From assembly GCA_021789695.1 (NCBI GenBank), contig JAJYJH010000009.1, positions 1,750-65,749 of the forward strand: 64,000 bases of DNA, in the 5' to 3' direction. A program made the position numbers and the translations under genes. Every line of letters begins with the position of its first letter. Position 1 is the first letter of the stretch. Origin of the DNA: a bacterium. Its GTDB lineage: Bacteria > Elusimicrobiota > Elusimicrobia > Elusimicrobiales > UBA9959. Shown here piece by piece: positions 43,333 through 61,936 of this stretch. The notes beneath the pieces were generated by a model, which was given only the letters and a program-made list of their open reading frames with translations, did no database searches and was not told the origin of the DNA.

Positions 43333-44970
43333 ATGGACAGATACCTGAAATACGCGGCGCCCCTAGTCTTTCTAGCCTTCGCAGCCACTCTCCTCCCCTG
43401 GCGCTGCAACTTCCCGCTCAACGACGACTGGGCCTACGCTCTGGCCTCCCGCGCACTGGCCGAGACCGGCCGCCTGCGCCTCTGTGACTGGGGTGCGTCC
43501 ACGCAGCTGCCGCACCTGCTTTGGGGCGCCCTCTTCACAAAGCTCTTCGGCTTCAGCTTCGGCGCGCTTCGCGTCGCGAACCTGCTGGTCTCGGCCGCCG
43601 GGCTTTATTTCTTCGTCAGGCTGATGGAGGAATTCGGGATAGGTCCCAGAGAAAAGCTGGCCGCGGCGCTGGCGCTGGCGCTTAACCCGCTCTACCTGGT
43701 GCTGGCGGATTCCTTCATGACGGACCAGCATTATCTGCTCTGGATGCTGGCCGCCTGCCTCTTCTACGTCCGGCGGCTCAAGGACCCCTCCGACGGCCGG
43801 GCGCTGTGGTTGGCAGGAGCCTGCTCCGCCATGGCCTACCTGACCAGGCAGTTGGCCCTCGCGCTGCCGCTGGCCTTCACGCTGGCCCTTTTCCTGGAAC
43901 GCCGCCCCAGATGGCGCGAACTGGCGGCGGTCTGGGCGCTACCGGCGGCCGCGGTGCTTGGCTTCGCCCTCTGGCTTAAGTACGTAAACGGCCCAACGTG
44001 GGCCTCGGAGAATTACGTCGGAGCCGCCACGCTGGCCCATCTTTCCAGGTTCGGCGCCTTTTTGGGCGACGCCGTCAGGCGAGTGCTCGCCTCGGCCATG
44101 GAGACAGGGCTGCTGCTGTTGCCGCTGGCGGCCGGTTTCCTCTTCAGCGCGGGGAGGTTCCGGCGCAAGAACGGCTTCAGACTGAAGGTGCACGCCGCCG
44201 TACCCTGGCTGGCGCTGGCGGCGCTGGCGATTTTCGCGCTGACGAGCGGCCCTCTCCCCTACCTGCAAAACAATATCTCTCCTTCCGGACTCGGGGCGCT
44301 CACGCTTGGAGGCGCCGTCCTGAAGCCCTCGGGCCTATTCGGCAGCCCCACGTTTTGGCGCCTGGCCACCGCGCTTTCCGTCGCCGGCGCCGCGCTTCTG
44401 ATCTGCGCCTCGGACCTCGCGCTACGCGCCGGACCGCCGGCGCTGCGCTTCGTTTTCTCGGCCGCCATGCTCCAGCTGGCGATCTCCCTGGTCGGGGCCA
44501 AATACTTCGACCGCTACCTGCTGACGCTGCTGCCCTGGTTCGCGCTGGCCGCGGCGTTCGCGGCCAAAGGCGTGCGCTTCTCGCTCCCGGCGGCCGGCAC
44601 GGCCCTGGCGCTGTATGCCGCGCTGGGCTGGGCGGGAATGAAGGACTACATGGCCTGGAACACGGCCAAGTGGGAACTGACCGAGAGACCGCACCCAGGC
44701 CTGTCCTCCGGGGAGATTGCGGCCGGCTTCGACCACGACGCCTGGCTGAACTACGAGGAGAGCATGGCCTACCTGAAGTCCATGAAGCCCCTAGATGCGA
44801 TTGGCGAATGGGAGTGGCAGAGCCTCATCCCGTACAAGGCACTAGTCTCCTACGCCCCGGACCAGCGCCTCAGGCTCCTTGACCGCATAGAGTATTCGAC
44901 GCCGCTCTCTACGGAGAAAGGCGTTCTCTACCTGATGGCCCTGCCTCCCGCCGCGCCGCCGGCGCGTTGA
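43333..44970 (+). CDS. GT-C-fold (ArnT/PMT-like) membrane glycosyltransferase
   Basis: LNDDWAY acidic motif after TM1, MTDQHY, YLTRQ, FDRYLL; many TMs. Confidence 0.75.
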   Translation: MDRYLKYAAPLVFLAFAATLLPWRCNFPLNDDWAYALASRALAETGRLRLCDWGASTQLPHLLWGALFTKLFGFSFGALRVANLLVSAAGLYFFVRLMEEFGIGPREKLAAALALALNPLYLVLADSFMTDQHYLLWMLAACLFYVRRLKDPSDGRALWLAGACSAMAYLTRQLALALPLAFTLALFLERRPRWRELAAVWALPAAAVLGFALWLKYVNGPTWASENYVGAATLAHLSRFGAFLGDAVRRVLASAMETGLLLLPLAAGFLFSAGRFRRKNGFRLKVHAAVPWLALAALAIFALTSGPLPYLQNNISPSGLGALTLGGAVLKPSGLFGSPTFWRLATALSVAGAALLICASDLALRAGPPALRFVFSAAMLQLAISLVGAKYFDRYLLTLLPWFALAAAFAAKGVRFSLPAAGTALALYAALGWAGMKDYMAWNTAKWELTERPHPGLSSGEIAAGFDHDAWLNYEESMAYLKSMKPLDAIGEWEWQSLIPYKALVSYAPDQRLRLLDRIEYSTPLSTEKGVLYLMALPPAAPPAR

Positions 44971-44988
44971 TTGCGCGCCGGATTTCTT
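44959..44988 (+). terminator. Possible weak terminator after the GT-C gene
   Basis: CCGGCGCG / CGCGCCGG stem followed by ATTTCTT. Confidence 0.4.
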
Positions 44989-44996
44989 GATAAAAT
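44988..44996 (+). promoter_or_regulatory. Extended -10 promoter of the megasynthase operon
   Basis: TG-A-TAAAAT in an AT-rich patch about 110 nt upstream of ATG 45110; a second TACAAT at 45042-45047. Confidence 0.5.
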
Positions 44997-45109
44997 ATAT
45001 ATATGACATCCTTAAACGGCATCATCTGACCCGTTTATCCGTACAATTTGAACCAATAACGCAGGCGGCTCCGCAAGCGCAGCCCCCGCGGTAAAGAGGC
45101 ATACAAATT

Positions 45110-48100
45110 ATGGACAACGAAAAAATAGCGATAGTCGGTCTCGGTATCATAGCCCCCAAGGCCCTCAATAAGGAACAGTTCTGGCAGAACGTGCTGGAGG
45201 GAAAGAACTGCATAACCGAGGTGCCGCAGGACCGCTGGGACTGGCGGCTCTACTATTCCGAGGACCGCAAAGCCGCCGACAAGACCTATTCCAAGATAGG
45301 CGGCTTTATTGAAGACTTCAAGTTCGATTCCATCAGATACAAGATCCCGCCGCAGAGCGCCGCGCAGATCTCGCGCCTCCAGCAGATGACGATAGAGGCG
45401 GTCCGCATGGCCCTGGAGGACGCCGGCTACGACGAAACTATCGCGGGTGCCGCATCAAAGGCCTCTGGCCAACAAACGGCCAAGAAGTCCTTTGATCCCA
45501 AGCGCACCGCGGCCGTGCTCGGCAACGCGATGGGCGCCAACCGCAAGGAGATGACCGACCTGCGCGTCTACAAGTTCTACAACGAGGACCTCATCAAGAA
45601 GACCTCCGTCTTCTCCGCGCTGCCTCGCGACAAGCAGGAGGCCCTGATAGCGGAGTTCGAGGCCGGCATAGACAACGGCATCATCAAGATCACCGAGGAC
45701 ACCATGCCCGGCGAGCTCTCCAACGTGACGGCCGGCCGCATAGCCAACGTCTTCAACCTCAACGGCCCCAACATGACGATGGACGCGGCCTGCGCCTCCT
45801 CCATGGCGGCGCTCGACTACGCGGTGCTTGGTTTGCGCGCCGGCAGATTCGACATGGCCGTGGCCGGCGGCGCCGACGAGATGATGAGCCCCGCCGCCTT
45901 CGTGAAGTTCTGCAAGATAGGCGCCCTGTCGGCCGACGGGTCCTACTCCTTCGACGAGCGGGCCAACGGCTTCGTGATGGCCGAGGCGGTCTCCATCTAC
46001 ATCCTCAAGCGCCTCTCCGACGCGGTCAGGGACGGCGACAAGATCTACGCGCTGATCAACGCGGTCGGCGCCTCCTCCGACGGCAAGGGCAAGGGCATCA
46101 CCGCCCCCAACCCGAAGGGCCAGAAGATAGCCATCGAGAACGCCTTTGAGCAGGTGGACTACGGCCCCGGCGAAGTGGATTTCGTCGAGGCGCACGGCAC
46201 CGCCACAAAGGTGGGCGACGCGGCCGAGGTGCAGGTGCTGCAAGAAGTGTTCGGTCCGCACATGGGCGGGGGCAAGAAGCTGGGCCTGACTTCCGTGAAG
46301 TCCCAGATCGGCCATTCCAAGGCCGCCGCCGGAGCGGTGTCCATGGCCAAGACGGCGCTCGCGATCTACAACAAGACGCTGCCTACCTCCATCAACTGCG
46401 TGAAGCTCAACCCCGGCATAGACCAGAACCTCTTCAAGGTCATCACCAAGGCCGAGCCGTGGGACAAGAACGGCCTGCGCCGCGCTAACGTATCCTCTTT
46501 CGGCTTCGGCGGCACCAACTTCCATGTACTGCTGGAGGAATACACCGGCCCGAACCACCCGCGCTACGCCAAGGCCGGCGCGGCCGTAGAGACGCCCGCC
46601 GCCGCCGTAGAGGTAGTGGAGAACCCGCGCGCACCCTTCGCCGGCCTGCAGGGCGAGGCCGTGACTTTCACCGGCAACACTCCGGAAGACGTCGTCAATA
46701 ACGCCAAGAAAGAAGCCGCCGCGGTCTTCGCCAAGTGGCCGGAAACATATCCTATGGCGACCTACACCCAGCCGTCGATGACGAAGGCCAAGGGTCCGTG
46801 GGGCGTATCCATCGTGGCGAAGTCCCCGAAGGACCTCGCCGAGAAGATAGAATTCATGGCCAAGAACGGCAAGGCCGGGACTTGGACCGAACCGCCGCTC
46901 AACTTCAAGCTGAAAGGCGTCTACACCTTCAAGACCGGCGTAAACCAGGCCAAGGTCGGTCTGCTGTTCCCCGGCCAGGGCTCGCAGTACGTCGACATGA
47001 TGCGCGACCTCGCCGCCAAGTACCAGGTGGTGCAGGCCACTTTTGACGAGGCCGACGTCATCCTGGAGAAGATGATAGGCATCAGGCTCACCGAGGCCAT
47101 CTGGAGCAAGCCCGGCGAGGGGAAAGAGGAACTGGCCAAGCGCGAAACCGCCATCAAGCAGACCCAGCTCACCCAGCCGTCCATGATGACGGCCGACATA
47201 GCGATGTACCGCCTGCTCAGGGAGTTCGGCGTGAAGCCGGACATGGCCATAGGCCACTCGCTCGGCGAGTACGCGGCCGCCACCGCGGCCGGCATTTTTA
47301 CCTTCGAGAACGGCCTGCGCGCCGTCACCAGCCGCGCCAAGGAAATGGCCAGCGTGAAAGTGGCCGACCCGGGCAAGATGGCCTCGGTCGCCCTCGGCTG
47401 CGACAAGGTCGACGCGGAGCTCAAGAAGATCGGCGGCTACGTCATCAGCGCCAACAAGAACTGCCCGCTGCAGACCGTCATAGCCGGCGAGGCGAAGTCC
47501 GTCGAACAGGCCGTGCAGCACTTCAAAGCGCTGGGCATCGAGGCGGGGGAGATACCGGTCAGCCACGCGTTCCATTCCGAGATAGTGGCGCCGGCCATGG
47601 GCCCTTACCGGAACTTCCTGCAGAACATCCCGATCAAGGCCGCGGACATGAAGATCCTATCCAACGTGACCGCCGACTTCTTCCCGACGGACCCGCAGGG
47701 CATCTACGACATGCTGATCAAGCAGATGACGAGCCCGGTGGAGTTCATAAAGCAGCTTGAACGCATGTACGACGAGGGCGTGCGCACTTTCATAGAATGC
47801 GGCCCTAAGCGAGTGCTCAGCGCGTTTGCCTCTTCGACGCTCAAGGACAAGCCGGAGCCGGTCACCATACTCGCTTCCAACCACCCGAAACGTGGCGGCA
47901 TCACCGAACTCAACGACCTGTTCGCCAACATGACGGCGCTTGGCATCCCGGTGAACTGGGACGGCAAGGTGCCGCAGCGGGGCGGGAAATTCTTCAACCC
48001 CTATTACCAGAACTGGGCGCTCAAGGCCACCGGGCAAATCCCAGTGTCCGCGCCGGCCTCCGCCGGCCAGGCCGCGCTTCCGGCCGATAAGGCGAGCTTC

Positions 48101-51100
48101 GCCGAGAAGTTCGGCTTCAACTTCAACCCGATAGCGGTCTCGGGCATAGCGGGCGGCACGCCCGGCACCTGGGACAAAATGTTCCGCGAGGCCAACCTCG
48201 ACGAGATCCTCGCCGGCAAGAACATGATAGAGCCCATCCCGGGCGAGTGGCGCGCGAAGCAGATAGACAAGAACATTATCCGCGTCGTGAAGTCCCCGAC
48301 GGGCAACCACAGCATCGAGAAGATAGATTCCGTGGACCAGGCCATAAAGCTGTCGGCGCGCGCCGGCCGCCTGGACATACAGGGTGAGTTCGGTCTGCCG
48401 AACACCGTCGCTAAGGCGCTGGATTCCACTTTCAAGATGGCCATAGCCGCCGGCGTGCTGGCCCTGAAGGACGCTGGCCTGCCGCTGATCCATTACTACA
48501 AGAAGACCACCACCGGGAGCTTTTTGCCCGAGAAGTGGGCGCTGCCCGAGCCGGTGGCCTCGGAGACCGGCGTGGTGTTCGCTTCGGCCTTCCCGGTGAC
48601 CGAGTCTCTGCTCCGCGAGGTCACCCATTACTTCAACTACAAGTACTCCGGCAAGACCGCGGCACAGCTGTGGAAAGTCTACCACAAGATCGTCGACAAG
48701 CTGCCAACCGAGGCCGACAAGGCCGGCCTGCGCGCCTGGCTGCAGAACGAGTTCGCGGGCTACCAGCCCGGCGAGGGCAAGGACCCGTACTCGTTCAGCC
48801 AGAACTTCCTGCTGAAGGTCATACCGATAGCGGACTCCCAGTTCGCCCAGTGGGTCGGCGCCAAGGGCCCGACGCTGCACGTCAGCGCGGCCTGCGCCTC
48901 CACCACGCAGGCGGTGCACCTGGCCGAGAGCTGGATACGCGCCGGCAAGTGCAAGCGCGTAGTCGTGATAGCCGCCGACGACATCACCAACGAGACCGTG
49001 CAGGAATGGACGATGCCCGGCTTCCTCGCCTCCGGCACCGCCACCACCAAGGAGAACGTCTCCGAGGCGGCACTGCCTTTCGACCGCCGCCGCCACGGCC
49101 TCATCGTGGGCTCCGGCGCCGTCGGTATGGTAGTCGAGGACGAGACACTAACACGCGGCCGCGGCATGAAGCCGCTCGCCCGCCTGCTCTTGACCGAGGC
49201 CGCCAACTCGGCCTTCCACGCCACGCGCCTCGACACCGAGCATGTGGCTTCCGTGATGTCCAACTTCGTGAAAAAGGTGGAGAACCTCTACGGCCTGAAG
49301 AAGGAAGAGATCGCGCCGTACACGATGTTCATGTCGCACGAGACCTATACCCCGGCCCGCGGCGGCTCCGCCTCGGCCGAGGTGAAGGCGCTGCGCCGGG
49401 CTTTCGGCGACGCCGCCGACAAGGTGGTGGTCAGCAACGTCAAGGGCTTCACCGGCCACACGATGGGCGCCTCGCTCGAGGACGTCATCGCCGTGCGCGC
49501 GCTGAACACCGGCATCATCCCGCCGATAGCCAACTATAAGGAACCCGACCCGGAACTCGCCGGCATCAATCTCTCTAAGGGCGGGCACTACGACCTGAAG
49601 TACGCCATACGCTTCGCCGCGGGCTTCGGCTCGCACATGGCCATGGCCATGACCGAGCGCGTCTGGCGGGCGGGGGAGAGCCGCTACGAGGACCAGGGCA
49701 GGTACAACGCCTGGGTCCGCGAGGTTTCCGGCGACCCGGCGGCCGAACTCGAAGTGGTGCAGAACACCCTGCGCGTGAAGGACAGGAAGACCGCCGGCAA
49801 GCCGGCCCACACCCCCGCCGCTCCCGCAAAGGAACCGGTGGCCGCGGCCGCCGCCCCGGCGCCGAAGCCGGCGCCGGGCGCCGCCGCCGCGCCGCAGCAT
49901 TACGCTGAGCCCAAGCCGGCCCCTGTCCACGCCCCGGCGCCCTCCGGTCTGGGCGAGGAGGCCGTGAAGGAAAACATCCTCGGGATGATCACCGAGAAAA
50001 CCGGCTACCCCAAGGATATGCTGGAGCTGGACCTCGACATGGAGGCCGACCTCGGCATAGACACCGTCAAGCAGGCCGAACTCTTCGCCGCGATGCGCGA
50101 GCACTACGCCATCCCGCGCCAGGAGAACGTCTCGCTCAAGGACTACCCGACCATACGCCACTGCATCAAGTTCGTCGTAGAGTCTAAAGGCGGAGCTGCC
50201 CCCGCGCCCGCCGCCGCGCCCGCCACGAAACCGGCGCCCGCGGCTGCCCCGCAGCATTATTCCGAGCCCAAGCCCGCCCCCGCGCCCGCCGCCACTTCGG
50301 CCGTCGGCGTTGACGATGAGTCCGTTAAGACGCAGATCCTCGGCATGATAGCCGAGAAGACCGGCTACCCCAAGGATATGCTGGAGCTGGACCTCGACAT
50401 GGAGGCCGACCTCGGCATAGACACCGTCAAGCAGGCCGAACTCTTCGCCGCGATGCGCGAGCACTACGCCATCCCGCGCCAGGAGAACGTCTCGCTCAAG
50501 GACTACCCGACCATACGCCACTGCATCAAGTTCGTCGTAGAGTCTAAAGGCGGAGCCGCCGCGGCCGTCGTCCAAGCCAAACCGGAGCAGCCGGACCTGC
50601 TGGACATCGGCGCGAAGCGGGAGGAGAAGCCTGTCTTGGCCGCGGCCGAAAAGCCGGCCAGGCAGGAATGGCCCAAGCGCCATATCCGCCACGTGCCTGT
50701 CGTGGTCGCGGCCCCGGTGGAGCAGGAGGTGATTAAAAAGATTTCCTCCAAGCGGCCTGTCGTCATCTTCGCCGAGGACCTGGACCTGGCGAAAGCCTTC
50801 CGCGCGGAGCTCAATAAGCACCGTGCCGACTCGTATATCTTCACCCCGGCCAAGACCAAAGTAAAAGACGCGATAACGGTGGACTTCCGCGACATGGCCG
50901 CCACCGAGAAGGCGCTCAAGGACTTCGCCGCCGAGCACCCCGATACGCAAGGCATCGTTTATCTGCCCGGCTGCATGGTGAAGTCGCTCTCGAAGGACAC
51001 CAGCGCTTTCGCGGACCTCAGGCGTTATGGCCTGCCGCTGTTCATGGCGGTAAAGTATCTAGCCGGAGGCCTGAACAGCCCTGAGGAGGGGCACTCCACC

Positions 51101-53149
51101 TTCATGGCCGTGGTCACCACGCTGGACGGCGGTTTCGGCTACAAGACCAGGGACGCCTACGATCCGGTCTACGGAGCCATCCACGGGCCGACGCTGTGCC
51201 TGCGCAAGGAGCTGGAGAAGAGCGCGGTGAAGTTGCTGGACTTCGAACCCAGCGCCTCCAATCAATTAATCGTCCAGAAGACCTTTTACGAGATCCTCTA
51301 TTCAGACAAACGCCTTGCCATCGGCTACGCCGACGGCAAACGTTGGACTCTGGTCGGCAAGCCCCAGGCGCTTGACAAGTCCCACCGCGCCGCGGAGCTG
51401 GAGGGGCGCAATGTCATAGTTACCGGCGGCGGGCGCGGCCTCGGCGCGATGTTCTCCAGGATGCTGGCCGAACAGCACAAGGCCAACGTCGTAATCCTGG
51501 ATATTATAGAGATAACCGAGGAAGCCAAGCGCCTCACCGGCATGGGCGAGACTGAGCTGAAAGCCTGGAAGATGGGAGAGCTCTGGAATAAGGTCAAGGC
51601 CACCAACGACAAGGCCACTCCAGCCATCCTGGAGAAGGAGTTTACCCGCCTGAAGGACGCGGCCGAGATGCACCGCAACCTGGAGGCGATACGTTCTCTC
51701 GGCGTGCAGGCACATTACTACCGCTGCGACCTCAGCAGCCCTGAGGCTATAGCCTCTGTCACTGCCAGCATCAAGGCCGATCTGGGCCAGGTGGACGGCC
51801 TGGTCCACTTCGCGGGGCTGGAGCGTTCCAAGCTCGCCGTAGACAAGGCCGTGGAGGAGTACACGCTGATTTTCAACGTGAAGGCCGACGCCGCCATTAA
51901 CCTGTGGAAGTCCGGGGTGGTAAAGGAAAAAGGTTTCTGGGCCATGGCCTCCTCGATAGCAGGCAAGTTCGGCAACGTCGGCCAGTCCGACTACGCCGCG
52001 GCCTCCGACTACATCGCGAAGTTCTGCGTCAGCCAGTCCAACCGCGGCGTGCACGCGGTCAGCGTGGACATGACTGGCTACGCGCAGATAGGCATGGGAG
52101 CCCGGCCGGGAGTAGAGGCCTTCCTGAAATCGCAGGAGATGGAGTTCCTTTACCCCGAGGAAGGCATGCAGGCTTTCCTCGACGAGATAGTTTACGGCAA
52201 GGTGCCGGAAATAATCCTCTCCGGCAGCCTGGGCAAACTGGACTGGGACCACCAGCTGCAGTACGAGCCGAACTTTTCCCCGTCCGGTTCAACCGGTTTC
52301 CATTTCGTACCGCGTCTGGACGACCTGCTGAAGGGGGAGATGCTGGCCGGGACTAAGGAATTCTCGCTGCAGTCAGACCCCTACCTGGCGGACCATTCCA
52401 TAAACGGCACCCCCTATGTGCCTGGCGTAATGGGTCTGGAGACTTTCGCCGAGGCCGCGGCGGTGCTGACCGGCAAGCCGCCGAAGGCGCTAACCGACGT
52501 GCGCTTCGCGGTGCCGATAAAACTGCTGCGCAACAGGGCCGCAGAGGTGAACATAAAGGCCGAGGCCGTCGACGAGACCGTAGAAATGAGGCTGGAGTCT
52601 GACTTCGTCAGCCCCAAAGGCCTGCGCCTGGGTCAGACCCGCACGCATTTCAAGGCGGTTGCGGCCCAGGACGCCTCTTCCGGCTGGACGCCGGATATGC
52701 GCCCGCGCCTGCCTAAGTCCAGGAAATACAGGACCGAGGCCGCGGTAATCTACAAGACCTATTTCCACGGGCCGAGTTTCCAGGTGCTCGACGGAGTTTT
52801 GTCGTTGGACAAGAGTTCGGTACTGGCGGTCTTCAAGCGCCCGCAGACCCCGCTGTGGAAGGAGACGCATCCGAAGCTGGTCTTCCACCCGCTGGTCTTC
52901 GAGGCGCTGTTCCAGGCCTGCGGCTGGCGCGACATACAGTTCGACAGGACCATGGCCCTGCCGGACGCGATAGGCGCGGCCGTAGCATACGATCATGAAC
53001 CGCTGGACCCGGAGACGCTGTTCCTCTACGGAGTCTTCAAGGGGCGCACAGAAGACAACCGCAGCCTCTACGACGCGTGGGCCTTTGACGAGGACTTCAA
53101 CCTCTTCGCCGAGCTGCGCGACTATGCGATGATCCCGACCCCCATCTGA
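45110..53149 (+). CDS. Iterative type I PKS/FAS megasynthase, PfaA-like: KS-AT-KS-ACP-ACP-KR-DH
   Basis: KS1 DAAC / HGTAT / QIGH; AT GHSLG and HAFH; KS2 SAAC / HETYT / FTGH; two ACPs LGIDTVKQ; KR TGGGRGLG and QSDYAAA; DH HSINGTPYVP and FEALFQ. Confidence 0.93.
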   Translation: MDNEKIAIVGLGIIAPKALNKEQFWQNVLEGKNCITEVPQDRWDWRLYYSEDRKAADKTYSKIGGFIEDFKFDSIRYKIPPQSAAQISRLQQMTIEAVRMALEDAGYDETIAGAASKASGQQTAKKSFDPKRTAAVLGNAMGANRKEMTDLRVYKFYNEDLIKKTSVFSALPRDKQEALIAEFEAGIDNGIIKITEDTMPGELSNVTAGRIANVFNLNGPNMTMDAACASSMAALDYAVLGLRAGRFDMAVAGGADEMMSPAAFVKFCKIGALSADGSYSFDERANGFVMAEAVSIYILKRLSDAVRDGDKIYALINAVGASSDGKGKGITAPNPKGQKIAIENAFEQVDYGPGEVDFVEAHGTATKVGDAAEVQVLQEVFGPHMGGGKKLGLTSVKSQIGHSKAAAGAVSMAKTALAIYNKTLPTSINCVKLNPGIDQNLFKVITKAEPWDKNGLRRANVSSFGFGGTNFHVLLEEYTGPNHPRYAKAGAAVETPAAAVEVVENPRAPFAGLQGEAVTFTGNTPEDVVNNAKKEAAAVFAKWPETYPMATYTQPSMTKAKGPWGVSIVAKSPKDLAEKIEFMAKNGKAGTWTEPPLNFKLKGVYTFKTGVNQAKVGLLFPGQGSQYVDMMRDLAAKYQVVQATFDEADVILEKMIGIRLTEAIWSKPGEGKEELAKRETAIKQTQLTQPSMMTADIAMYRLLREFGVKPDMAIGHSLGEYAAATAAGIFTFENGLRAVTSRAKEMASVKVADPGKMASVALGCDKVDAELKKIGGYVISANKNCPLQTVIAGEAKSVEQAVQHFKALGIEAGEIPVSHAFHSEIVAPAMGPYRNFLQNIPIKAADMKILSNVTADFFPTDPQGIYDMLIKQMTSPVEFIKQLERMYDEGVRTFIECGPKRVLSAFASSTLKDKPEPVTILASNHPKRGGITELNDLFANMTALGIPVNWDGKVPQRGGKFFNPYYQNWALKATGQIPVSAPASAGQAALPADKASFAEKFGFNFNPIAVSGIAGGTPGTWDKMFREANLDEILAGKNMIEPIPGEWRAKQIDKNIIRVVKSPTGNHSIEKIDSVDQAIKLSARAGRLDIQGEFGLPNTVAKALDSTFKMAIAAGVLALKDAGLPLIHYYKKTTTGSFLPEKWALPEPVASETGVVFASAFPVTESLLREVTHYFNYKYSGKTAAQLWKVYHKIVDKLPTEADKAGLRAWLQNEFAGYQPGEGKDPYSFSQNFLLKVIPIADSQFAQWVGAKGPTLHVSAACASTTQAVHLAESWIRAGKCKRVVVIAADDITNETVQEWTMPGFLASGTATTKENVSEAALPFDRRRHGLIVGSGAVGMVVEDETLTRGRGMKPLARLLLTEAANSAFHATRLDTEHVASVMSNFVKKVENLYGLKKEEIAPYTMFMSHETYTPARGGSASAEVKALRRAFGDAADKVVVSNVKGFTGHTMGASLEDVIAVRALNTGIIPPIANYKEPDPELAGINLSKGGHYDLKYAIRFAAGFGSHMAMAMTERVWRAGESRYEDQGRYNAWVREVSGDPAAELEVVQNTLRVKDRKTAGKPAHTPAAPAKEPVAAAAAPAPKPAPGAAAAPQHYAEPKPAPVHAPAPSGLGEEAVKENILGMITEKTGYPKDMLELDLDMEADLGIDTVKQAELFAAMREHYAIPRQENVSLKDYPTIRHCIKFVVESKGGAAPAPAAAPATKPAPAAAPQHYSEPKPAPAPAATSAVGVDDESVKTQILGMIAEKTGYPKDMLELDLDMEADLGIDTVKQAELFAAMREHYAIPRQENVSLKDYPTIRHCIKFVVESKGGAAAAVVQAKPEQPDLLDIGAKREEKPVLAAAEKPARQEWPKRHIRHVPVVVAAPVEQEVIKKISSKRPVVIFAEDLDLAKAFRAELNKHRADSYIFTPAKTKVKDAITVDFRDMAATEKALKDFAAEHPDTQGIVYLPGCMVKSLSKDTSAFADLRRYGLPLFMAVKYLAGGLNSPEEGHSTFMAVVTTLDGGFGYKTRDAYDPVYGAIHGPTLCLRKELEKSAVKLLDFEPSASNQLIVQKTFYEILYSDKRLAIGYADGKRWTLVGKPQALDKSHRAAELEGRNVIVTGGGRGLGAMFSRMLAEQHKANVVILDIIEITEEAKRLTGMGETELKAWKMGELWNKVKATNDKATPAILEKEFTRLKDAAEMHRNLEAIRSLGVQAHYYRCDLSSPEAIASVTASIKADLGQVDGLVHFAGLERSKLAVDKAVEEYTLIFNVKADAAINLWKSGVVKEKGFWAMASSIAGKFGNVGQSDYAAASDYIAKFCVSQSNRGVHAVSVDMTGYAQIGMGARPGVEAFLKSQEMEFLYPEEGMQAFLDEIVYGKVPEIILSGSLGKLDWDHQLQYEPNFSPSGSTGFHFVPRLDDLLKGEMLAGTKEFSLQSDPYLADHSINGTPYVPGVMGLETFAEAAAVLTGKPPKALTDVRFAVPIKLLRNRAAEVNIKAEAVDETVEMRLESDFVSPKGLRLGQTRTHFKAVAAQDASSGWTPDMRPRLPKSRKYRTEAAVIYKTYFHGPSFQVLDGVLSLDKSSVLAVFKRPQTPLWKETHPKLVFHPLVFEALFQACGWRDIQFDRTMALPDAIGAAVAYDHEPLDPETLFLYGVFKGRTEDNRSLYDAWAFDEDFNLFAELRDYAMIPTPI
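50000..50556 (+). repeat. Tandem ACP duplication, 360-nt period
   Basis: 50000-50196 is identical to 50360-50556 (197 nt); the linker motif PQHY(A/S)EPKPAP is also duplicated. Confidence 0.95.
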
Positions 53150-53153
53150 CGGG

Positions 53154-53804
53154 ATGACAAAGACAGCCGAGAATATAGCCGAAGAGACCTGGCCCGGTAC
53201 AGGGGCAACGCTCCGCTTCGTCCGGGTGGCCGGGCTCTCGCCCGACGGGGCGCTATCGGAAAGGGAAACAGCCGTCTACGCAGCCTTCCGCATGGAGAAG
53301 CGCCGGGCAGAATGGCTGGCCGGCAGGCTTGCTGCCAAGTCCCTGCTGACCGCGGCCTCGGGCCGTAGGCAGGAGGAATGCGAGATAGGCATGGACCGGC
53401 TGGGACGCCCCTGCTGCGGGGAGACTCTGGTCTCTATCTCCCACTCCGGAGGCTGGGCTCTGGCCGCGACCAAGCCGGGCTCCGCCTTCCTCGGCGCCGA
53501 CATGGAAAAGGTGGAGGAGCGCCACCACGCCTGGTACTCGGACTACTTCCATCCCTCGGAACTCCCCAGCCATGACCCCTCCGAGGCCACCAGGCTCTGG
53601 ACCATAAAAGAGGCCGTCCTGAAAGCCCTTGGTCTGGGACTGATGGCAGACCCGCTCCACGTCAGGGCCGGAGAACGCGTCATGCTCTCCGGCAAGGCCC
53701 TGGGGCGCTACCGCGAGCTGGGCAGCCCTGCGTACTCGGTGGAAACGCGGGCCTTCCCAGAGGGTTTTTGGACCGCCGTAGTGGCGGACTCCGTTTTGAA
53801 GTAA
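53154..53804 (+). CDS. Sfp/PfaE-type 4'-phosphopantetheinyl transferase
   Basis: RRAEWLAGRLAAK, VSISHS, GADME, WTIKEAVLKALG. Confidence 0.92.
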   Translation: MTKTAENIAEETWPGTGATLRFVRVAGLSPDGALSERETAVYAAFRMEKRRAEWLAGRLAAKSLLTAASGRRQEECEIGMDRLGRPCCGETLVSISHSGGWALAATKPGSAFLGADMEKVEERHHAWYSDYFHPSELPSHDPSEATRLWTIKEAVLKALGLGLMADPLHVRAGERVMLSGKALGRYRELGSPAYSVETRAFPEGFWTAVVADSVLK

Positions 53805-53834
53805 AATATCAGGTAAAGAGAGGTTACACCACCC

Positions 53835-55466
53835 ATGGCGGATTTAATGGAAGACCCCATAGCCGGAGCGGCGCAGCAGGCCGGCAAGAAATCGCATCCC
53901 AAGAAGGTGCGCGTAGTCCCGGAGTCACTCCGGAAGTTCCGGGAGATAAGGGAGGCGGCCGAGGCCGGAGGCCCGCCCGATAAGGTGGAAGCACAGAAGA
54001 AGCGCGGCAAACTGACGGCACGCGAAAGGATAGCCTATCTGGTGGACGAAGGCACCTTCCAGGAGTTGGGACTGCTGATGGAGAGCCGCTGCACGGACTT
54101 CGGCATCAGGGATAAGCATATCAAGGGCGACGGCGTCGTCACCGGCTTCGGCAGAATCGGCGGCCGGCTGGCCGCAATCTTTTCCGAGGACTTCACGCAG
54201 CTTGGAGGCTCGTTGGGCCGCACGCACGCCGGCAAGATAGCCAAGCTTATGGACATGGCGGCCGACGCCCGCTGCCCGGTCATCGGCATATTGGACTCCG
54301 GCGGCGCCCGCATCCAGGAGGGGGTGGATTCGCTGGACGGCTACGGAGAGATCTTCTACCGCAACACGAAGTATTCCGGTGTCGTGCCGCAGATCTCGAT
54401 CATTGTCGGCCCGTGCGCGGGAGGCGCGGTCTATTCCCCGGCGCTGACCGACTTCGTCTTCATGGTGCAGGGCCTGAGCAACATGTTCGTCACCGGCCCC
54501 GAGGTCGTCAAGGCGGCCACCGGCGAGTCGGTGGACTTCGAGACGCTCGGGGGCGCGATGACACACGCCTCCAAGTCCGGCGTCTGCCATTTCACCGCCA
54601 ACTCCGAGCAGGATTGTTTCCGGCAGGTCAAGGAGCTGCTAAGCTTCCTGCCTGCCAGCCGCCACGAAGCTCCTCCGACGTCCGAAACGAAGGACTCCGA
54701 CACGCGCCGTATTTCGCTCCTGGAGAAGCTCTGCGAGATGGACCCGCGCAAGCCGTACCGCGTGCACCATATCATCTGGTGGCTGGCCGACGATCACAAG
54801 TTCCTGGAGGTGCACCACAACTACGCCAAGAACATCGTCGTGGGCTTCGTAAGGCTGGGGGGGAAGGTGGTCGGCGTGATAGCCAACAACCCGGCCCACA
54901 TGGCCGGCGCGCTGGACATCAACGCCTCCGATAAGGCGGCCCGCTTCATCCGCTTTATGAACGCCTTCAACATCCCGATTCTGACGCTGGTGGACGTGCC
55001 CGGCTACTGGCCAGGCGTGGCGCAGGAGCACGGAGGAATCATCCGCCACGGCGCCAAGCTGCTCTACGCCTACGCGGAGGCCACCGTCCCCAAGGTCACG
55101 CTGGTCCTGCGCAAGGCCTACGGCGGGGCTTACATAGCGATGAGTTCCAAGATGATGGGCGGGGACATAAACTTTTCCCTGCCCTCCGCTGAGATAGCGG
55201 TCATGGGCCCCCGCGGCGCCATAGAGATACTCTACTCTCGCCAGATCAAGGAGGCCAAGGACGAGGAGAAGGAAGCCATGCGGGCTAAGCTGGCCAAAGA
55301 GTATTCGGACAAGTTCGCCTCGCCCTATCAGACGGCCTCTACCGGCTCCATAGACGAGGTCATAGAGCCTGCCCAGGCCAGGGCACGGCTGATCTCCGCC
55401 TTCCGCCTGCTGGCGGAGAAGCGCAGGCCCGGAGAGGCCGGACGCTCCGGCAACATCCCGCTGTAA
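53835..55466 (+). CDS. Acyl-CoA carboxylase carboxyltransferase subunit (PccB/MmdA-like)
   Basis: GKLTARERI, DSGGARIQEG, GPCAGGAVYSPALTD, VDVPGY, RKAYGGA. Confidence 0.95.
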   Translation: MADLMEDPIAGAAQQAGKKSHPKKVRVVPESLRKFREIREAAEAGGPPDKVEAQKKRGKLTARERIAYLVDEGTFQELGLLMESRCTDFGIRDKHIKGDGVVTGFGRIGGRLAAIFSEDFTQLGGSLGRTHAGKIAKLMDMAADARCPVIGILDSGGARIQEGVDSLDGYGEIFYRNTKYSGVVPQISIIVGPCAGGAVYSPALTDFVFMVQGLSNMFVTGPEVVKAATGESVDFETLGGAMTHASKSGVCHFTANSEQDCFRQVKELLSFLPASRHEAPPTSETKDSDTRRISLLEKLCEMDPRKPYRVHHIIWWLADDHKFLEVHHNYAKNIVVGFVRLGGKVVGVIANNPAHMAGALDINASDKAARFIRFMNAFNIPILTLVDVPGYWPGVAQEHGGIIRHGAKLLYAYAEATVPKVTLVLRKAYGGAYIAMSSKMMGGDINFSLPSAEIAVMGPRGAIEILYSRQIKEAKDEEKEAMRAKLAKEYSDKFASPYQTASTGSIDEVIEPAQARARLISAFRLLAEKRRPGEAGRSGNIPL

Positions 55467-55488
55467 AGAACCGCTTGCGCCAATGGAG

Positions 55489-55515
55489 AAGGCCGGTCCC
55501 CTGACCGGCCTTTTT
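55489..55515 (+). terminator. Rho-independent terminator ending the PKS operon
   Basis: AAGGCCGGTC-CCCT-GACCGGCCTT followed by TTT. Confidence 0.9.
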
Positions 55516-55619: not shown

Positions 55620-57059
55620 ATGAATCTCCCCATAAAATTGCTCACCACTGCAGTAGCTGTCCCGGTGTTCGGCGCGTTCCTGATACCGTTCGCCAGCCGG
55701 GTGTCCAATTCAGCCCGGAACGCCTTCGCGGTGCTCCTGGGCCTGTTCACTTTCGCGGCGGTGGCCTCCCTGCTGCGCCCGGTGCTGGAGGGGAGCACGG
55801 TGGATTATATCATCAGCTTCCCTCGCGGCTTCGACCTGATACTGCACGCCGACCTGCTCTCGGTCTTCATGGCGACAGTTTCCTCCTTTGTCAGCGCGAT
55901 AATCCTGATTTACTCGCTTGACTACATCTCGCACTACGACAACCAAACCGAATACTACACGATGGTGGTATTTTTCCTCGGCTCTATGATGGGTCTGGTG
56001 TTTTCCGCCAACCTGCTGTGGATGTACGTGTTCTGGGAAATGACCGGTTTCGCGAGTTGGAGGCTGGTGGGCTTCTTCCGCTCTGACCGCGACGTCGCCA
56101 AGGCCAACAAGACCATACTTGTCACCGTCTTCGGCGCGCTTTGCATGCTGATAGGCATAATAATGATTTACACCAACTACGGCACGCTGGACCTGCGCGC
56201 GCTGCACGGACAGGCCATCACTTTCACGGCGGCCGCCTTCATCCTGGCGGGCATCCTCTCCAAGTCCGCCACGCTGCCGTTCTCCACCTGGCTGCCGGAC
56301 GCCGGCGTGGCTCCCTCCACGGTGACCTCCCTGCTGCACGCGGCCGTGCTGGTAAAGATCGGCGTTTACGCTTACGCCCGCATTTTCGGCGTCACGTTCG
56401 CCGCGCCCGAGGCCTTCTCCATGATGGTTCTCTATATAACCGGGGCCAGCGCGCTGATCTCGGCCGGCGCCGCCCTGGTCGAGACCGACATCAAGAGGAT
56501 AATCGCCTACTCCACTATAAGCCAGCTGGCGTTCATTTTCCTGGGCCTGGCCTCCGGCAACAAGACCGCCTTCATCGGCGCCATCCTATACATCCTGATG
56601 CACAGCGTGGCCAAGGGGGGGCTGTTCCTCTGCGCCGGTATCATTGAGCAGAAGACCCACACTAAGGACATCAACCGGATGGGCGGCCTGTTCCGCTCGA
56701 TGCCGGTCACCGGTTCCGCCTTCGCGCTCTGCTCCCTGTCCATCATGGGCATCCCGCCCTTCGGCGGCTTCTTCGGCAAGTATCTGGTCTTTGCCGGCGC
56801 CGCGCAGAACGGCAGCCTTGGCGTGCTGCTGATGTTCCTCTTCGGAGCCATGATGACCCTGCTCTACCTGGTCCGCCTGTTCTACAAGATATTCCTGGGC
56901 GAGCCCGCCGGCCACGAGAACCCGAAAGAAGGCTCCTACACGATGGTCGCCAGCGTGATGGCCCTCGCCCTCATCAGCCTGGCCCTCGGCGCCTTAATCT
57001 ACTACCCGGCCAGTTACGCCGGCCTCCTCACCACCACCCTAGGAGTGAACCTGCAATGA
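55620..57059 (+). CDS. Antiporter-like subunit (NuoL/MrpA-type core, no lateral helix)
   Basis: FWEMTG, KSATLPFSTWLPDA, LLHAAVLVKIG, HSVAKGGLF, GFFGK. Confidence 0.9.
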   Translation: MNLPIKLLTTAVAVPVFGAFLIPFASRVSNSARNAFAVLLGLFTFAAVASLLRPVLEGSTVDYIISFPRGFDLILHADLLSVFMATVSSFVSAIILIYSLDYISHYDNQTEYYTMVVFFLGSMMGLVFSANLLWMYVFWEMTGFASWRLVGFFRSDRDVAKANKTILVTVFGALCMLIGIIMIYTNYGTLDLRALHGQAITFTAAAFILAGILSKSATLPFSTWLPDAGVAPSTVTSLLHAAVLVKIGVYAYARIFGVTFAAPEAFSMMVLYITGASALISAGAALVETDIKRIIAYSTISQLAFIFLGLASGNKTAFIGAILYILMHSVAKGGLFLCAGIIEQKTHTKDINRMGGLFRSMPVTGSAFALCSLSIMGIPPFGGFFGKYLVFAGAAQNGSLGVLLMFLFGAMMTLLYLVRLFYKIFLGEPAGHENPKEGSYTMVASVMALALISLALGALIYYPASYAGLLTTTLGVNLQ

Positions 57060-58921
57060 ACCTGATACTGATACCGATATTCCTCCCGCTGGCGACTGCC
57101 GCGGCCGTCCTGCTGATAAACGAGAAGACGAAGTACCTGAAGGAGATCCTCTCCTCGGCCGCGGCGCTGGTGGCGCTGCTGGCAGCTGGCGACATCTTCC
57201 TGCAGCTGCCTGCGGAACAGCATCTCTCGTTGCCGTGGATCAGCGCCGGGCTCAGTTTCACGCTGCGGGCGGACGCACTCAGCGCTTTTCTGCTGCTGGC
57301 TGTCTCACTGTTCTCTGCGGCCATTTCGATCTACTCTTTCAGCATGCCCGACAAGGGCTCCTCAAAGTGGTTCTTCTTCAACCTGCTAATGACGCAGGCC
57401 TTCGCCGCCGGAGCAGCGCTGGCGGACAGCCTGCTGGTCATGCTGTTCTTCTGGGAAGGGCTGCTGGTGTTCCTCTATACCTTCATCATCCTCTCTCAGG
57501 ACGCCCCGGGGGCGCGCCGCACGGCCAAGAAGGCCTTCCTCATAAACGGCGTCACCGACCTCTGCCTGCTCGTTGGCATAACCATCACCGGCTATATCGC
57601 CGGCACCATGAACATGTCGGAGATAGCGCGCAACAAGCTGACGCTGGACTATGGCTGGTCCGTGTTCGCCTACGTGCTGCTGATGATCGGCGCGGTCTCC
57701 AAGGCCGGGGCCATGCCGTTCCATACCTGGATTCCCGACGCCGCCACCAATTCCAGTTCGCCGTTCATGGCCTACATCCCGGCGGCCATAGACAAGCTGC
57801 TCGGGATCTATTTCCTGGCCCGCGCGAGCATCTACCTTTACCAGCTCAACGGCGCCATGTCGATAGTACTCATGACGCTGGGCGCGTTCACGATCCTGGC
57901 GGCAGTGATGATGGCCTTCGTGCAGAAGGACTACAAGCGGCTGCTCTCCTACCACGCGGTCAGCCAGACCGGGTACATGATACTCGGAATAGGCACGCTG
58001 AACCCCATAGGTATAGCCGGCGGCCTGTTTCACATGATAAACCACGCCACCTACAAGTCCTGCCTGTTCATGACGGCGGGCTCCGTGGAGCGGCGGACCG
58101 GAACGAACGACCTTACCAAGCTGGGAGGGCTCTTCCGCCTGATGCCGCTCACCGCCATTTTCTTCCTGATAGCGGCCGCGGCCATCTCCGGCATAGCGCC
58201 CTTCAACGGTTTCTTCTCCAAGGAGCTCGTCTACCGCGGCGCGCTAGACAGCGGCCACCCGATCTTCTTCTGGGCGGCAGAGCTCGGCTCCTTCCTGACA
58301 CTGGCCTCGTTCCTCAAGCTGGGCCACTCCGTCTACTTCGGCAGGCTGCCGGAGAACCTCAAGAACACCAAGGAGGCTCCGTTCTCCATGCTGCTGCCGA
58401 TGGCATCCTTAGCCGCCATCTGCGTGCTCTTCGGCTTCGGCGCGCACTTGCCGCTTGAGCGCTTTATCAGTCCGGCCCTCAGCTCGATTGGCGTCCAGCA
58501 CGGTGAGTTGGCCGGTTTTGAGGCGGGCAAGTTGTACTTTCTCTCGGTCATAGTCATACTGGCCGCGGTCATCAACCATATGTTGGGCCTGGCCGCCGGC
58601 GGGGGGAAGGCGAGCAAAGCCTCCGACCACATCCATTACGCCCCGGTGCTAAAGCAAGCCTACGCGATGGCGGAGAACAGGGTCTTCGACATCTACGAGC
58701 TCGGCATGGACAAGGTAGTGCCGGTGGTGGCGAAAGTGATGTTCAGCGTCGACCGCTTCTTCGACTGGGTCATAGATACGGCGCCCAGCTCGGCCGCGGG
58801 GTTCTTCAGCGACGCCTCGGAGCGCTTTCATAACGGCTCCTACCCGCTCTACATGGCCCTCACGCTGGCCGGGGCCGCAGTGTACATCCTGTTAGCGGCG
58901 CTCAACGGAGGGTTGAAATAA
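57056..58921 (+). CDS. Antiporter-like subunit with NuoL-type C-terminal extension
   Basis: FWEGL, KAGAMPFHTWIPDA, INHATYKSCLF, GFFSKE; long amphipathic tail ending in a TM. Confidence 0.9.
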   Translation: MNLILIPIFLPLATAAAVLLINEKTKYLKEILSSAAALVALLAAGDIFLQLPAEQHLSLPWISAGLSFTLRADALSAFLLLAVSLFSAAISIYSFSMPDKGSSKWFFFNLLMTQAFAAGAALADSLLVMLFFWEGLLVFLYTFIILSQDAPGARRTAKKAFLINGVTDLCLLVGITITGYIAGTMNMSEIARNKLTLDYGWSVFAYVLLMIGAVSKAGAMPFHTWIPDAATNSSSPFMAYIPAAIDKLLGIYFLARASIYLYQLNGAMSIVLMTLGAFTILAAVMMAFVQKDYKRLLSYHAVSQTGYMILGIGTLNPIGIAGGLFHMINHATYKSCLFMTAGSVERRTGTNDLTKLGGLFRLMPLTAIFFLIAAAAISGIAPFNGFFSKELVYRGALDSGHPIFFWAAELGSFLTLASFLKLGHSVYFGRLPENLKNTKEAPFSMLLPMASLAAICVLFGFGAHLPLERFISPALSSIGVQHGELAGFEAGKLYFLSVIVILAAVINHMLGLAAGGGKASKASDHIHYAPVLKQAYAMAENRVFDIYELGMDKVVPVVAKVMFSVDRFFDWVIDTAPSSAAGFFSDASERFHNGSYPLYMALTLAGAAVYILLAALNGGLK

Positions 58922-60354: not shown

Positions 60355-60842
60355 CGAACGACTACCGCACCCTGCTCTACGCGCTGGCGGTCTTCTTCTC
60401 GCTCTGGGCTGTGATCTCAAGGAAACTGCTAATCTCGGCGATAATGCTGGCCCTCGTCAGCGTCTTGGTCTCGCTGATTTTCTTCGACTTTGGAGCCCCG
60501 TGGGCCGGCGTTTTTGAGCTCTCGGTCTGCGCCGGACTTATAACCGTGCTGTTCGTGAGCGCGGTCAGCCTGATTCGCGCCGAGGAGGAAAAGCACCCCG
60601 AGAGCCGCGCCCGCTTCTACGCGCTGCCGCTGGCCGCCGCCATCTTCGCGATAGCCGGCTGGTTCTATCTGCCGCAGTTCTTCGCGGAGATAGCAGGCTG
60701 GACGCGCCCAAGCACCGGGGGCGGTACAATAGGGCTCGCCCTGTGGGATATGCGCCGCCCGGACTTGCTGGGCCAGGTGCTGATGCTGGCCGCCGGCGTC
60801 TTCGTGATAAAATCAATCTTTCCCAGGAGGAGCGAGAAATGA
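60351..60842 (+). CDS. NuoJ-like membrane subunit
   Basis: About five TMs; APWAGVFELSVCAGLITVL; IGLALW..RRPDLLGQ. Confidence 0.75.
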   Translation: MTNDYRTLLYALAVFFSLWAVISRKLLISAIMLALVSVLVSLIFFDFGAPWAGVFELSVCAGLITVLFVSAVSLIRAEEEKHPESRARFYALPLAAAIFAIAGWFYLPQFFAEIAGWTRPSTGGGTIGLALWDMRRPDLLGQVLMLAAGVFVIKSIFPRRSEK

Positions 60843-61144
60843 ACTCTTTCCCGATGGAGTGGTACTTTACGGCCCTGATGATGTTCGTAGGTTTTTACTG
60901 TATGCTAGCCTCCCGCAGCATAGTGCGGCAGCTGATAGGCCTGGAAATAATCTCCAAGGGCGCGATGCTGGCGCTGCTCTCGGCAGGGGCGCTGGCGAAC
61001 AACCTGGTCTTCGCGCAGGCCCTGGTGCTTACGCTGATAGTCATAGAGGTGGTCGTCGTGGGGGCCGGCCTCGCGCTGCTGGTCAAGAACTTCCGAGTCA
61101 ACGGCACCACCGACATCTGGAAGCTCGACAGCCTCAAAGGATAA
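60839..61144 (+). CDS. NuoK/MnhC-like membrane subunit
   Basis: Three TMs; IGLEII and IVIEVVV glutamates; ATGA overlap. Confidence 0.8.
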   Translation: MNSFPMEWYFTALMMFVGFYCMLASRSIVRQLIGLEIISKGAMLALLSAGALANNLVFAQALVLTLIVIEVVVVGAGLALLVKNFRVNGTTDIWKLDSLKG

Positions 61145-61148
61145 AGCC

Positions 61149-61484: not shown

Positions 61485-61488
61485 CAAC

Positions 61489-61926: not shown

Positions 61927-61936
61927 GGAGGACTCG

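Follow-up and report, generated by a model that had tools for sequence, protein, structure and literature searches.

A Type R PfaA-like megasynthase operon as a candidate core of housekeeping fatty-acid synthesis in an Elusimicrobiales lineage

A PfaA-like megasynthase that is encoded together with its own phosphopantetheinyl transferase raises the question of whether its operon belongs to a secondary-lipid pathway or to the housekeeping synthesis of fatty acids. The operon lies in a 64,000-nt stretch of contig JAJYJH010000009.1 (assembly GCA_021789695.1, positions 1,750 to 65,749), which we refer to as the window and in whose numbering the coordinates of the locus are given; the contig is part of a 2.45-Mb metagenome-assembled genome of a free-living Elusimicrobiales from mine-drainage metagenomes (95.7% complete, 0.8% contaminated). 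An ORF scan with translations resolved three co-directional open reading frames (ORFs) for a megasynthase, an Sfp-type 4'-phosphopantetheinyl transferase (PPTase) and a carboxyltransferase. The megasynthase of 2679 residues is ordered ketosynthase (KS)-acyltransferase (AT)-KS-acyl carrier protein (ACP)-ACP-ketoreductase (KR)-dehydratase (DH), and its stop codon is separated by exactly 4 nt from the PPTase gene, which in turn is followed after 30 nt by the carboxyltransferase gene. This layout had been described in an earlier reading of the window (hereafter the original prediction) and is borne out by ORFs, Pfam, NCBIfam and motifs. With a confidence that is only somewhat better than even, we read the operon as the centre of housekeeping fatty-acid synthesis in this Elusimicrobiales lineage rather than as a secondary-lipid pathway. 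New here are the loss of FabF, FabH and FabD from the genome, the location of its sole ketosynthases and its sole carboxyltransferase in the operon, and the mutual exclusion of megasynthase and FabF among related genomes.

Fatty-acid genes inside and outside the operon

The megasynthase contains the only ketosynthases of the genome. Phmmer searches of all 10,395 six-frame ORFs, with its first and second KS domains (KS1 and KS2) as queries, matched the megasynthase alone, and FabF/FabB and FabH are absent from the genome, their models matching only KS1 and KS2 (188 and 132 bits, versus a cut-off of 494) and a thiolase. A canonical FabD was not found in the genome either, the sole other AT reaching 104 bits against a FabD cut-off of 261. 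Present are AcpP (123 bits), FabG (316 bits) and FabZ (181 bits), all above their cut-offs, along with LpxA, AcpS, AccC and BCCP and, by sequence reading, PlsX and LpxC. At the acpP locus (contig C4, 235441-238191) the genes run plsX-fabG-acpP-rnc without interruption, with plsX overlapping fabG and the RNase III gene directly after acpP, indicating that no fabH, fabD or fabF occupies its usual slot and that an assembly gap is not the cause. The inventory thus favours in part the suggestion in the original prediction that the operon stands in, as a type I system, for the type II fatty-acid synthase (FAS), in that FabD, FabH and FabF are gone, but AcpP, FabG and FabZ remain.

Bacterial fatty-acid synthesis is regarded as type II nearly everywhere, type I being known mainly from the Corynebacteriales, and FabF, FabH and FabI serve both as antibiotic targets and as annotation markers. 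The chemistry expected of the megasynthase is that of type II FAS (malonyl loading, decarboxylative condensation, keto-reduction and dehydration), and the likeness extends to KS2, which is nearest to FabF/KasA, and to the AcpP, FabG, FabZ, PlsX and LpxA that the genome keeps. The systems differ in that loading and condensing are combined here in a single protein that brings its own carriers, and in that FabD, FabH, FabF and FabI/K/V do not occur as discrete enzymes. Nor does the megasynthase resemble the type I FAS of Corynebacteriales and fungi, in which an enoyl reductase (ER) and a malonyl/palmitoyl transferase are integrated in one polypeptide.

The carboxyltransferase is likewise the only one in the genome, as determined by phmmer and by profile searches (hmmsearch --max) of all six-frame ORFs, and it is full-length, with both halves in one chain (PF01039, Carboxyl_trans, 596 bits, residues 54-531); its substrate may be acetyl- or propionyl-CoA. 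AccC (637 bits) and BCCP/AccB are encoded elsewhere in the genome and thus have no other partner, so that the carboxyltransferase of the operon is probably the only malonyl-CoA-making subunit of this organism. Its gene is conserved 3' of the PPTase gene throughout the Elusimicrobia, and in distant family members either a full AccC-BCCP-carboxyltransferase set or a single-chain acetyl-CoA carboxylase (ACC) is encoded beside the megasynthase. Since NCBIfam matches the protein best to the mmdA subfamily (715 bits, short of the 999 cut-off), we also considered that it might be unrelated to the synthase and serve energy conservation as a decarboxylase alpha subunit, acting on methylmalonyl-CoA or a related substrate. 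We hold this to be very improbable: the linkage to megasynthase and PPTase is kept down to ~50% identity though the flanks change, complete ACC gene sets occur in the same operon in other family members, AccB and AccC would be left without any carboxyltransferase, and the AT carries the malonyl-type motif HAFH (residues 819-822) that the original prediction had pointed out.

We then compared the distribution of the two kinds of condensing enzyme by running searches for FabF and for the KS2 region on one set of 121 Elusimicrobiota genomes. FabF scored above the cut-off (>580 bits) in 72 genomes, none of which has the megasynthase (0/72), and the megasynthase was found in 44 genomes, none of which has such a FabF (0/44). 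Nearly all of the megasynthase genomes (41/44) are of the window's own order, and the other three (G070, G076 and G090) are of its class. Three genomes of the order gave one megasynthase-type KS match each, and three others a divergent version. Our literature search found no paper on FabF loss in Elusimicrobia.

The stand-alone AT outside the operon is divergent (GRSMG for GHSLG, 104 bits to FabD) and is encoded on contig C43 (41681-43680), followed by a gene for a 339-aa P-loop protein. An 889-aa ORF on contig C49 (12831-15500) appears by eye to combine a LuxC-like acyl reductase with a LuxE-like acyl-protein synthetase in one chain (AMP-binding motif FFASGGSTGQPK) and may allow fatty acyl groups to be turned into aldehydes or alcohols. 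Among the 121 genomes, some Elusimicrobiaceae (G026, G029, G035, G038, G048, G050, G068, G074, G092 and G108) have the megasynthase and two ~400-416-aa KS genes, 9-10 kb apart, that score 230-290 bits to FabF (below cut-off), which suggests an additional type II polyketide synthase (PKS)-like or aryl-polyene-like cluster.

The megasynthase, its family and its carrier domains

Pfam and NCBIfam place KS1 at residues 4-480, the AT at 619-930, KS2 at ~1001-1555, then two PP-binding repeats, the catalytic part of the KR at 2102-2322 (behind a structural subdomain at ~1860-2100) and PKS_DH_N at 2415-2493. This domain order is PfaA-like, and Pfam detected neither an ER nor an NMO-type domain in the 2679 residues. 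By direct reading, the catalytic motifs of all KS, AT, KR and DH domains are intact. Across 64 divergent representatives of the family (30-55% identity), Ser717, Arg742 and His822 of the AT, the complete Cys1262-His1410-His1450 triad of KS2, Gly2106, Ser2282 and Tyr2295 of the KR and His2429 of the DH are invariant. The solved structures nearest to KS1 are KS domains of type I PKSs, whereas those closest to KS2 are FabF and KasA.

A cluster of this kind was catalogued by Shulse & Allen (2011, PLoS One 6:e20146, PMC3098273) as the Type R secondary lipid cluster, a pfaA homologue of the order KS-MAT-CLF-ACP(3-6)-KR with a downstream PPTase that occurs in Koribacter, Solibacter, Elusimicrobium minutum and Roseiflexus and whose product is unknown. 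We assign the operon to Type R with high confidence, because its architecture and downstream PPTase match this description and it has orthologues in Elusimicrobium. From what can be read in the sequence, the single pfaA homologue starts with KS-MAT, a second KS-like domain stands between the MAT and the tandem ACPs, a KR follows, the PPTase gene lies directly 3', and the host is a member of the Elusimicrobia. We accordingly rejected a new architecture or class, and of the 'uncharacterised synthase class' in the original prediction only the lack of a known product stands, the architecture having been catalogued in 2011 and orthologues numbering in the hundreds in Elusimicrobia. These best homologues, proteins of 2500-3200 aa with 52-85% identity, include those of Elusimicrobium posterum, Parelusimicrobium proximum and Avelusimicrobium. 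E. posterum, two other assemblies and three genomes belonging to the window's class share the unit of megasynthase, PPTase and carboxyltransferase genes, with different flanks, and the E. posterum protein (P0058, 52% identical) is identical to that of the window in domain order and in its three-gene unit. The Type R family as a whole comprises >1,300 representatives at 50% clustering, and our literature search found no later characterisation of it.

The window protein nonetheless departs from the Type R catalogue in several respects. It has 2 carriers versus 3-6 and a C-terminal PKS-type DH, and in Elusimicrobia operons the carboxyltransferase is a conserved third gene. KS2 holds the position that the catalogue calls 'CLF', but the full Cys-His-His triad is kept in it and in the family, so that it is not a Cys-less chain length factor. 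Finally, Type R is filed as 'secondary' in the catalogue, whereas the genome of the window has no primary FabD, FabH or FabF.

PfaA itself (pfaABCDE system, TIGR02813) resembles the megasynthase in its N-terminal KS-MAT (772 bits, best stretch residues 5-946), in tandem ACPs followed by a KR and a PKS-type DH, and in a dedicated Sfp-type (PfaE-like) PPTase. It differs in that the window protein stays below the PfaA cut-off of 1010 bits, has an extra KS between AT and ACPs and carries Thr instead of Ser at the ACP site. PfaB, PfaC and PfaD partners were found nowhere in the genome, which has no other KS, whose sole further AT is the 104-bit outlier and in which the matches to the NMO family are IMP dehydrogenase and weak noise. 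On the score and on these missing partners we rejected a polyunsaturated fatty-acid synthase, and the 'polyunsaturated lipid' of the original prediction, for which a PfaC, a PfaD or a FabA-type dehydratase/isomerase partner is lacking, finds no support. Enediyne PKSs (PKSE; KS-AT-ACP-KR-DH-PPTase), which sit in large enediyne clusters and make a heptaene, are also iterative enzymes without ER that have a PfaA-related KS-AT, a KR with a PKS-type DH and a dedicated PPTase, fused in PKSE as it is in the family member at locus L026. Unlike the megasynthase, however, they have one KS and one Ser-ACP and need a thioesterase, and the window operon has no enediyne context. A more distant relative of the megasynthase (P0204, 34% identical, Thr carriers) is encoded at locus L027 (4458-18950) in the order AMP ligase, megasynthase, PPTase, alpha/beta hydrolase, KASIII, free ACP and KASIII; some members of the Type R family probably make specialised lipids, as the L027 genes illustrate.

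Both carrier repeats of the megasynthase read MEADLGIDTVKQAELF (LGIDT), with Thr1652 and Thr1772 in place of the phosphopantetheinyl Ser of ACPs. The Thr aligns with the Ser of the solved PigH and Streptomyces coelicolor ACPs, and neither repeat has the helix-II Ser of the canonical DSL motif, which is normal in the genome's own AcpP. Thr is present in every carrier repeat of the 10/10 Elusimicrobia orthologues that we read and in 217/223 repeats of the 64 representatives, where the rest of the helix-II motif is also kept and one protein has Ser throughout. The two coding repeats (276 nt each, 360 nt apart) are only 91% identical, on which ground we rejected a collapse of ACP repeats in the assembly; two copies are probably correct, and the repeat number in orthologues ranges from 2 to 6.

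The PPTase has the two-lobed architecture of Sfp-type enzymes (PF17837, 4PPT_N, 30.9 bits; PF01648, ACPS, 37.5 bits). Of the 8 contexts from outside the window's order that we looked at, 7 have a dedicated PPTase next to the megasynthase and only the all-Ser member P0166 does not; at L026 the PPTase is fused to a megasynthase in which all four carriers have Thr. The genome encodes a separate AcpS on contig C59 that is distinct from the PPTase of the operon. Because a dedicated PPTase is adjacent or fused to Thr-only carriers, while a separate AcpS is present for AcpP, these arrangements suggest that phosphopantetheine is linked to the carrier domains through Thr. Our literature search found no paper on Thr-linked phosphopantetheine, and we found no mention of the carrier-site Thr in PMC3098273.

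The Thr carriers also bear on a hybrid of type I and type II synthesis, in which KS1-AT-KS2 would serve free AcpP in trans as a fused FabH/FabD/FabF, FabG and FabZ would act as discrete enzymes, and the Thr carriers would be a scaffold or serve another product. Exactly FabD, FabH and FabF are missing from the genome while AcpP (with its DSL motif), FabG, FabZ and AcpS are kept, and the MAT of PfaA can serve AcpP in vivo (PMC8174602), both of which speak for the hybrid. Nevertheless, we judge it improbable, given the conservation of Thr and of the surrounding helix-II motif throughout the family. In addition, the adjacent PPTase, fused at L026 to a Thr-only megasynthase, argues that the carriers are modified and used, and the KR and DH with their invariant catalytic residues would duplicate FabG and FabZ.

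A proposed working and its enoyl reduction step

The working that we infer for a housekeeping synthase, on the basis of gene content, catalytic motifs, missing alternative enzymes, phyletic distribution and gene neighbourhoods, would begin with the carboxyltransferase, which together with AccC and AccB would convert acetyl-CoA to malonyl-CoA. The adjacent Sfp-type PPTase would activate the tandem carriers, apparently on Thr1652 and Thr1772, an unprecedented chemistry. The malonyl-specific AT would load these carriers and possibly free AcpP too, a cross-talk for which the replacement of FabD by the MAT domain of PfaA in vivo (PMC8174602) provides a precedent. KS1 (PKS-like) and KS2 (FabF-like) would prime and elongate the chains, replacing with the AT the missing FabD, FabH and FabF, and the KR and DH would give the 3-hydroxy and 2-enoyl intermediates. 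Enoyl reduction would occur in trans, with a long acyl-CoA dehydrogenase (ACAD), EtfB and a ferredoxin-fused EtfA encoded on contig C2 as candidates, or with a FabI such as the one in the operon of G076. The chains could then be passed to the AcpP-dependent consumers that the genome has retained, PlsX and LpxA.

The enoyl reductase was sought in the genome and across the phylum. FabK and FabV, like FabI, were found in no member of the window's order among the 121 genomes. The two other members of the SDR family in the genome are generic oxidoreductases, and the MDR proteins are, by sequence reading, two Tdh-like and one Kdd-like, none of them an enoyl reductase. The FabI query (E. coli FabI) did retrieve FabI from G062 and G076, which served as a positive control. 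The 72 FabF-bearing genomes gave a FabK-like protein in 28, FabI in one and FabV in two, and ~41 of them are negative for all three. The absence of FabI, FabK and FabV is therefore weak evidence against enoyl reduction in Elusimicrobiota, which may use an unrecognised enoyl reductase family.

Candidate reductase genes do adjoin the megasynthase in relatives. A FabI-like gene in G076 (256 aa; its top twelve NCBIfam matches are all FabI) ends 6 nt 5' of the megasynthase gene, giving the order fabI-megasynthase-PPTase-carboxyltransferase, and a 553-aa ACAD is encoded directly 5' of the megasynthase in the distant members at L021 and L025. The genome of the window encodes a 546-aa orthologue of this ACAD (546 bits) on contig C2 (136999-140760), followed by EtfB and by an EtfA that bears a 2x[4Fe-4S] ferredoxin domain at its N-terminus. 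Across Elusimicrobiales the C2 dehydrogenase keeps 68-95% identity, and an Elusimicrobiaceae contig has the same ACAD-EtfB-EtfA trio. The neighbouring FabI and ACAD genes point to a reductase acting in trans, for which the C2 ACAD-EtfBA is a candidate. The caffeyl-CoA reductase-Etf complex CarCDE and the Bcd-EtfAB complexes reduce enoyl thioesters; the C2 trio resembles them in combining an ACAD-fold reductase with EtfB and a ferredoxin-bearing EtfA, and differs from them in the length of the dehydrogenase, with a C-terminal extension of ~150 aa, and in having orthologues directly 5' of Type R megasynthases elsewhere. Malonyl-CoA supply, reductase and PPTase recur as partners of the megasynthase, and together they are what a self-sufficient fatty-acid synthase requires.

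The main rival explanation is a secondary-lipid or polyene synthase that acts alone and does not reduce the enoyl groups, so that its product would be a conjugated polyene or a polyhydroxy chain, much as enediyne PKSs make a heptaene; the fatty acids of the membrane would be taken up from the surrounding community and activated by a FadD-like ligase. Such a synthase would accord with a megasynthase that has no ER domain in a genome that has no FabI, FabK or FabV, with the entry of Type R, its product not known, among the 'secondary lipid' synthases of the 2011 catalogue (PMC3098273), and with the one FadD-like AMP ligase of the genome. Moreover, the ability of a relative (G094) to do without every ketosynthase and the secondary-metabolite-style cluster around the distant member at L027 (AMP ligase, hydrolase and KASIII genes) are in line with it. 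However, it leaves unexplained where, without another ketosynthase, the (R)-3-hydroxyacyl-ACP for LpxA and the acyl-ACP for PlsX would come from, though LpxA, PlsX, FabG, FabZ and AcpP are all kept, and why the sole carboxyltransferase for an acetyl-CoA carboxylase lies in the operon. FabF has been lost across the whole order while the megasynthase has been kept, FabI or ACAD is encoded directly 5' of the megasynthase in relatives, and the ~41 FabF-bearing genomes that also have none of the three reductases weaken the argument from a missing ER. Speaking for the housekeeping reading as well, the genome comes from mine drainage, so that no host supplies lipids. Taken together, we regard the polyene or secondary-lipid synthase as unlikely.

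Several points nevertheless weigh against a housekeeping role. We found no thioesterase and no known step for the transfer of chains to AcpP or to lipids, no FabI, FabK, FabV or FabL was recognised in the genome, and the Thr at the carrier site is without demonstrated chemistry. The link to the ACAD-Etf complex rests on gene neighbourhood in other lineages, and this complex could equally serve butyrate or lysine fermentation. Type R clusters in other phyla were catalogued as secondary, alongside other lipid synthesis (PMC3098273), so that a housekeeping role is not the default of the family. The mutual exclusion of FabF and megasynthase is phylogenetically clustered and represents few independent events; G090 has a 353-bit FabF-like gene in addition to the megasynthase, and several Elusimicrobiaceae carry extra pairs of ~410-aa KS genes. 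Furthermore, G094 (same class, 96% complete) has no ketosynthase at all, neither FabF nor megasynthase; the organism is possibly auxotrophic for fatty acids or has an unrecognised route to them, and life without de novo fatty-acid synthesis may thus be possible in the Elusimicrobia class. The genome of the window being 95.7% complete, its gene absences are not absolute.

A wider claim, that the whole order Elusimicrobiales and some sister families make their membrane and lipid A fatty acids by a PfaA-like megasynthase that displaced FabD, FabH and FabF, with Thr-linked phosphopantetheine attached by the PPTase of the operon and an enoyl step by a flavin-based ACAD/EtfBA complex or, in some lineages, FabI, we put forward tentatively and as a possibility about which we have clear doubts. 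On this wider claim, the megasynthase would represent a second, independent kind of bacterial housekeeping type I fatty-acid synthase. If the synthase does have a housekeeping role, predictions in which Elusimicrobia are scored as unable to make fatty acids are wrong, and the Type R family, product-less since 2011, would acquire a function. The modification of Thr in place of Ser on the carriers would then be essential in these organisms, making it an experimentally pressing question for which the cultured Elusimicrobium species offer a tractable test system.

Layout and surroundings of the operon

The features of the locus are listed in Table 1. A terminator-like hairpin closes the upstream glycosyltransferase gene and sets the operon apart from it. 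The promoter named in the original prediction (TTGATT-18-TAAAAT) exists in the sequence, but counts as a consensus match only, since the 14.5 kb that were scanned hold 1 promoter-type site against a mean of 2.5 in shuffles. The terminator behind the carboxyltransferase gene proved to be real, as GGCCGGTC-CCCT-GACCGGCC followed by TTTTT folds with a dG of -27.3 kcal/mol (z = -5.0) and 0/200 shuffles were as stable.

Table 1. Features of the megasynthase operon and its signals, in window coordinates
Feature	Position	Strand	Evidence and residues
Terminator-like hairpin closing the upstream glycosyltransferase gene	44959..44981	+	9-bp stem, 8 GC pairs, then T-rich tail
Sigma-70-like promoter match TTGATT-18-TAAAAT	44967..44996	+	9/12 positions match; weak evidence
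Ribosome-binding site AAGAGG, 10 nt 5' of the megasynthase ATG	45094..45099	+	Direct sequence reading
Type R PfaA-like iterative megasynthase (predicted), 2679 aa, KS1-AT-KS2-ACP-ACP-KR-DH	45110..53149	+	ORF, Pfam, NCBIfam, motifs
KS1, type I PKS/PfaA-like ketosynthase	45119..46549	+	Pfam; Cys228, EAHGT, GHS, His402
AT domain, FabD-like, 210 bits	46964..47899	+	GHSLG Ser717, HAFH 819-822
KS2, FabF/KasA-like second ketosynthase ('CLF' in the 2011 catalogue)	48110..49774	+	Triad Cys1262-His1410-His1450
Carrier domain 1	49943..50194	+	Thr1652 (codon 50063-50065) at phosphopantetheine-site position
Carrier domain 2	50303..50554	+	Thr1772 (codon 50423-50425); Pfam
KR catalytic subdomain	51413..52075	+	GGGRGLG, Tyr2295; Pfam
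PKS-type double-hotdog dehydratase	52307..53146	+	Pfam PKS_DH_N, 40 bits; His2429 in HxxxGxxxxP
Sfp-type 4'-phosphopantetheinyl transferase, 216 aa	53154..53804	+	Pfam ACPS + 4PPT_N
Acyl-CoA carboxylase carboxyltransferase subunit (PccB/AccD5/12S type), 543 aa	53835..55466	+	Pfam Carboxyl_trans
Intrinsic terminator, 8-bp GC stem, CCCT loop, T5 run	55491..55515	+	Fold vs shuffles

The operon looks native, as had been supposed, with a GC content of 0.61-0.66 versus 0.58-0.67 elsewhere in the 64-kb window and nothing that points to foreign DNA. A horizontal or mobile origin was rejected because there is no compositional signal, the unit is kept order-wide and the synteny is native in the closest relative. 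The sequence occurs in DNA metagenome runs only. We also confirmed that genes for an ER, a thioesterase, PfaB/C/D or tailoring enzymes are absent within ~5 kb upstream and 8 kb downstream. Upstream are genes for an ArnT/PMT_2-like glycosyltransferase and for cytochrome bd, downstream those for an Mrp antiporter and NiFe-hydrogenase, and none of these neighbours is related to lipid synthesis. The glycosyltransferase gene (545 aa, 43333-44970, + strand) lies directly 5' of the operon here and in the closest relative (L014), and not in more distant relatives. The downstream genes (55620-63606, + strand) encode three Mrp/NuoL-M-N-like antiporter subunits, a NuoJ/MbhD-like protein and a protein like the NiFe-hydrogenase large subunit/Nuo49kDa.

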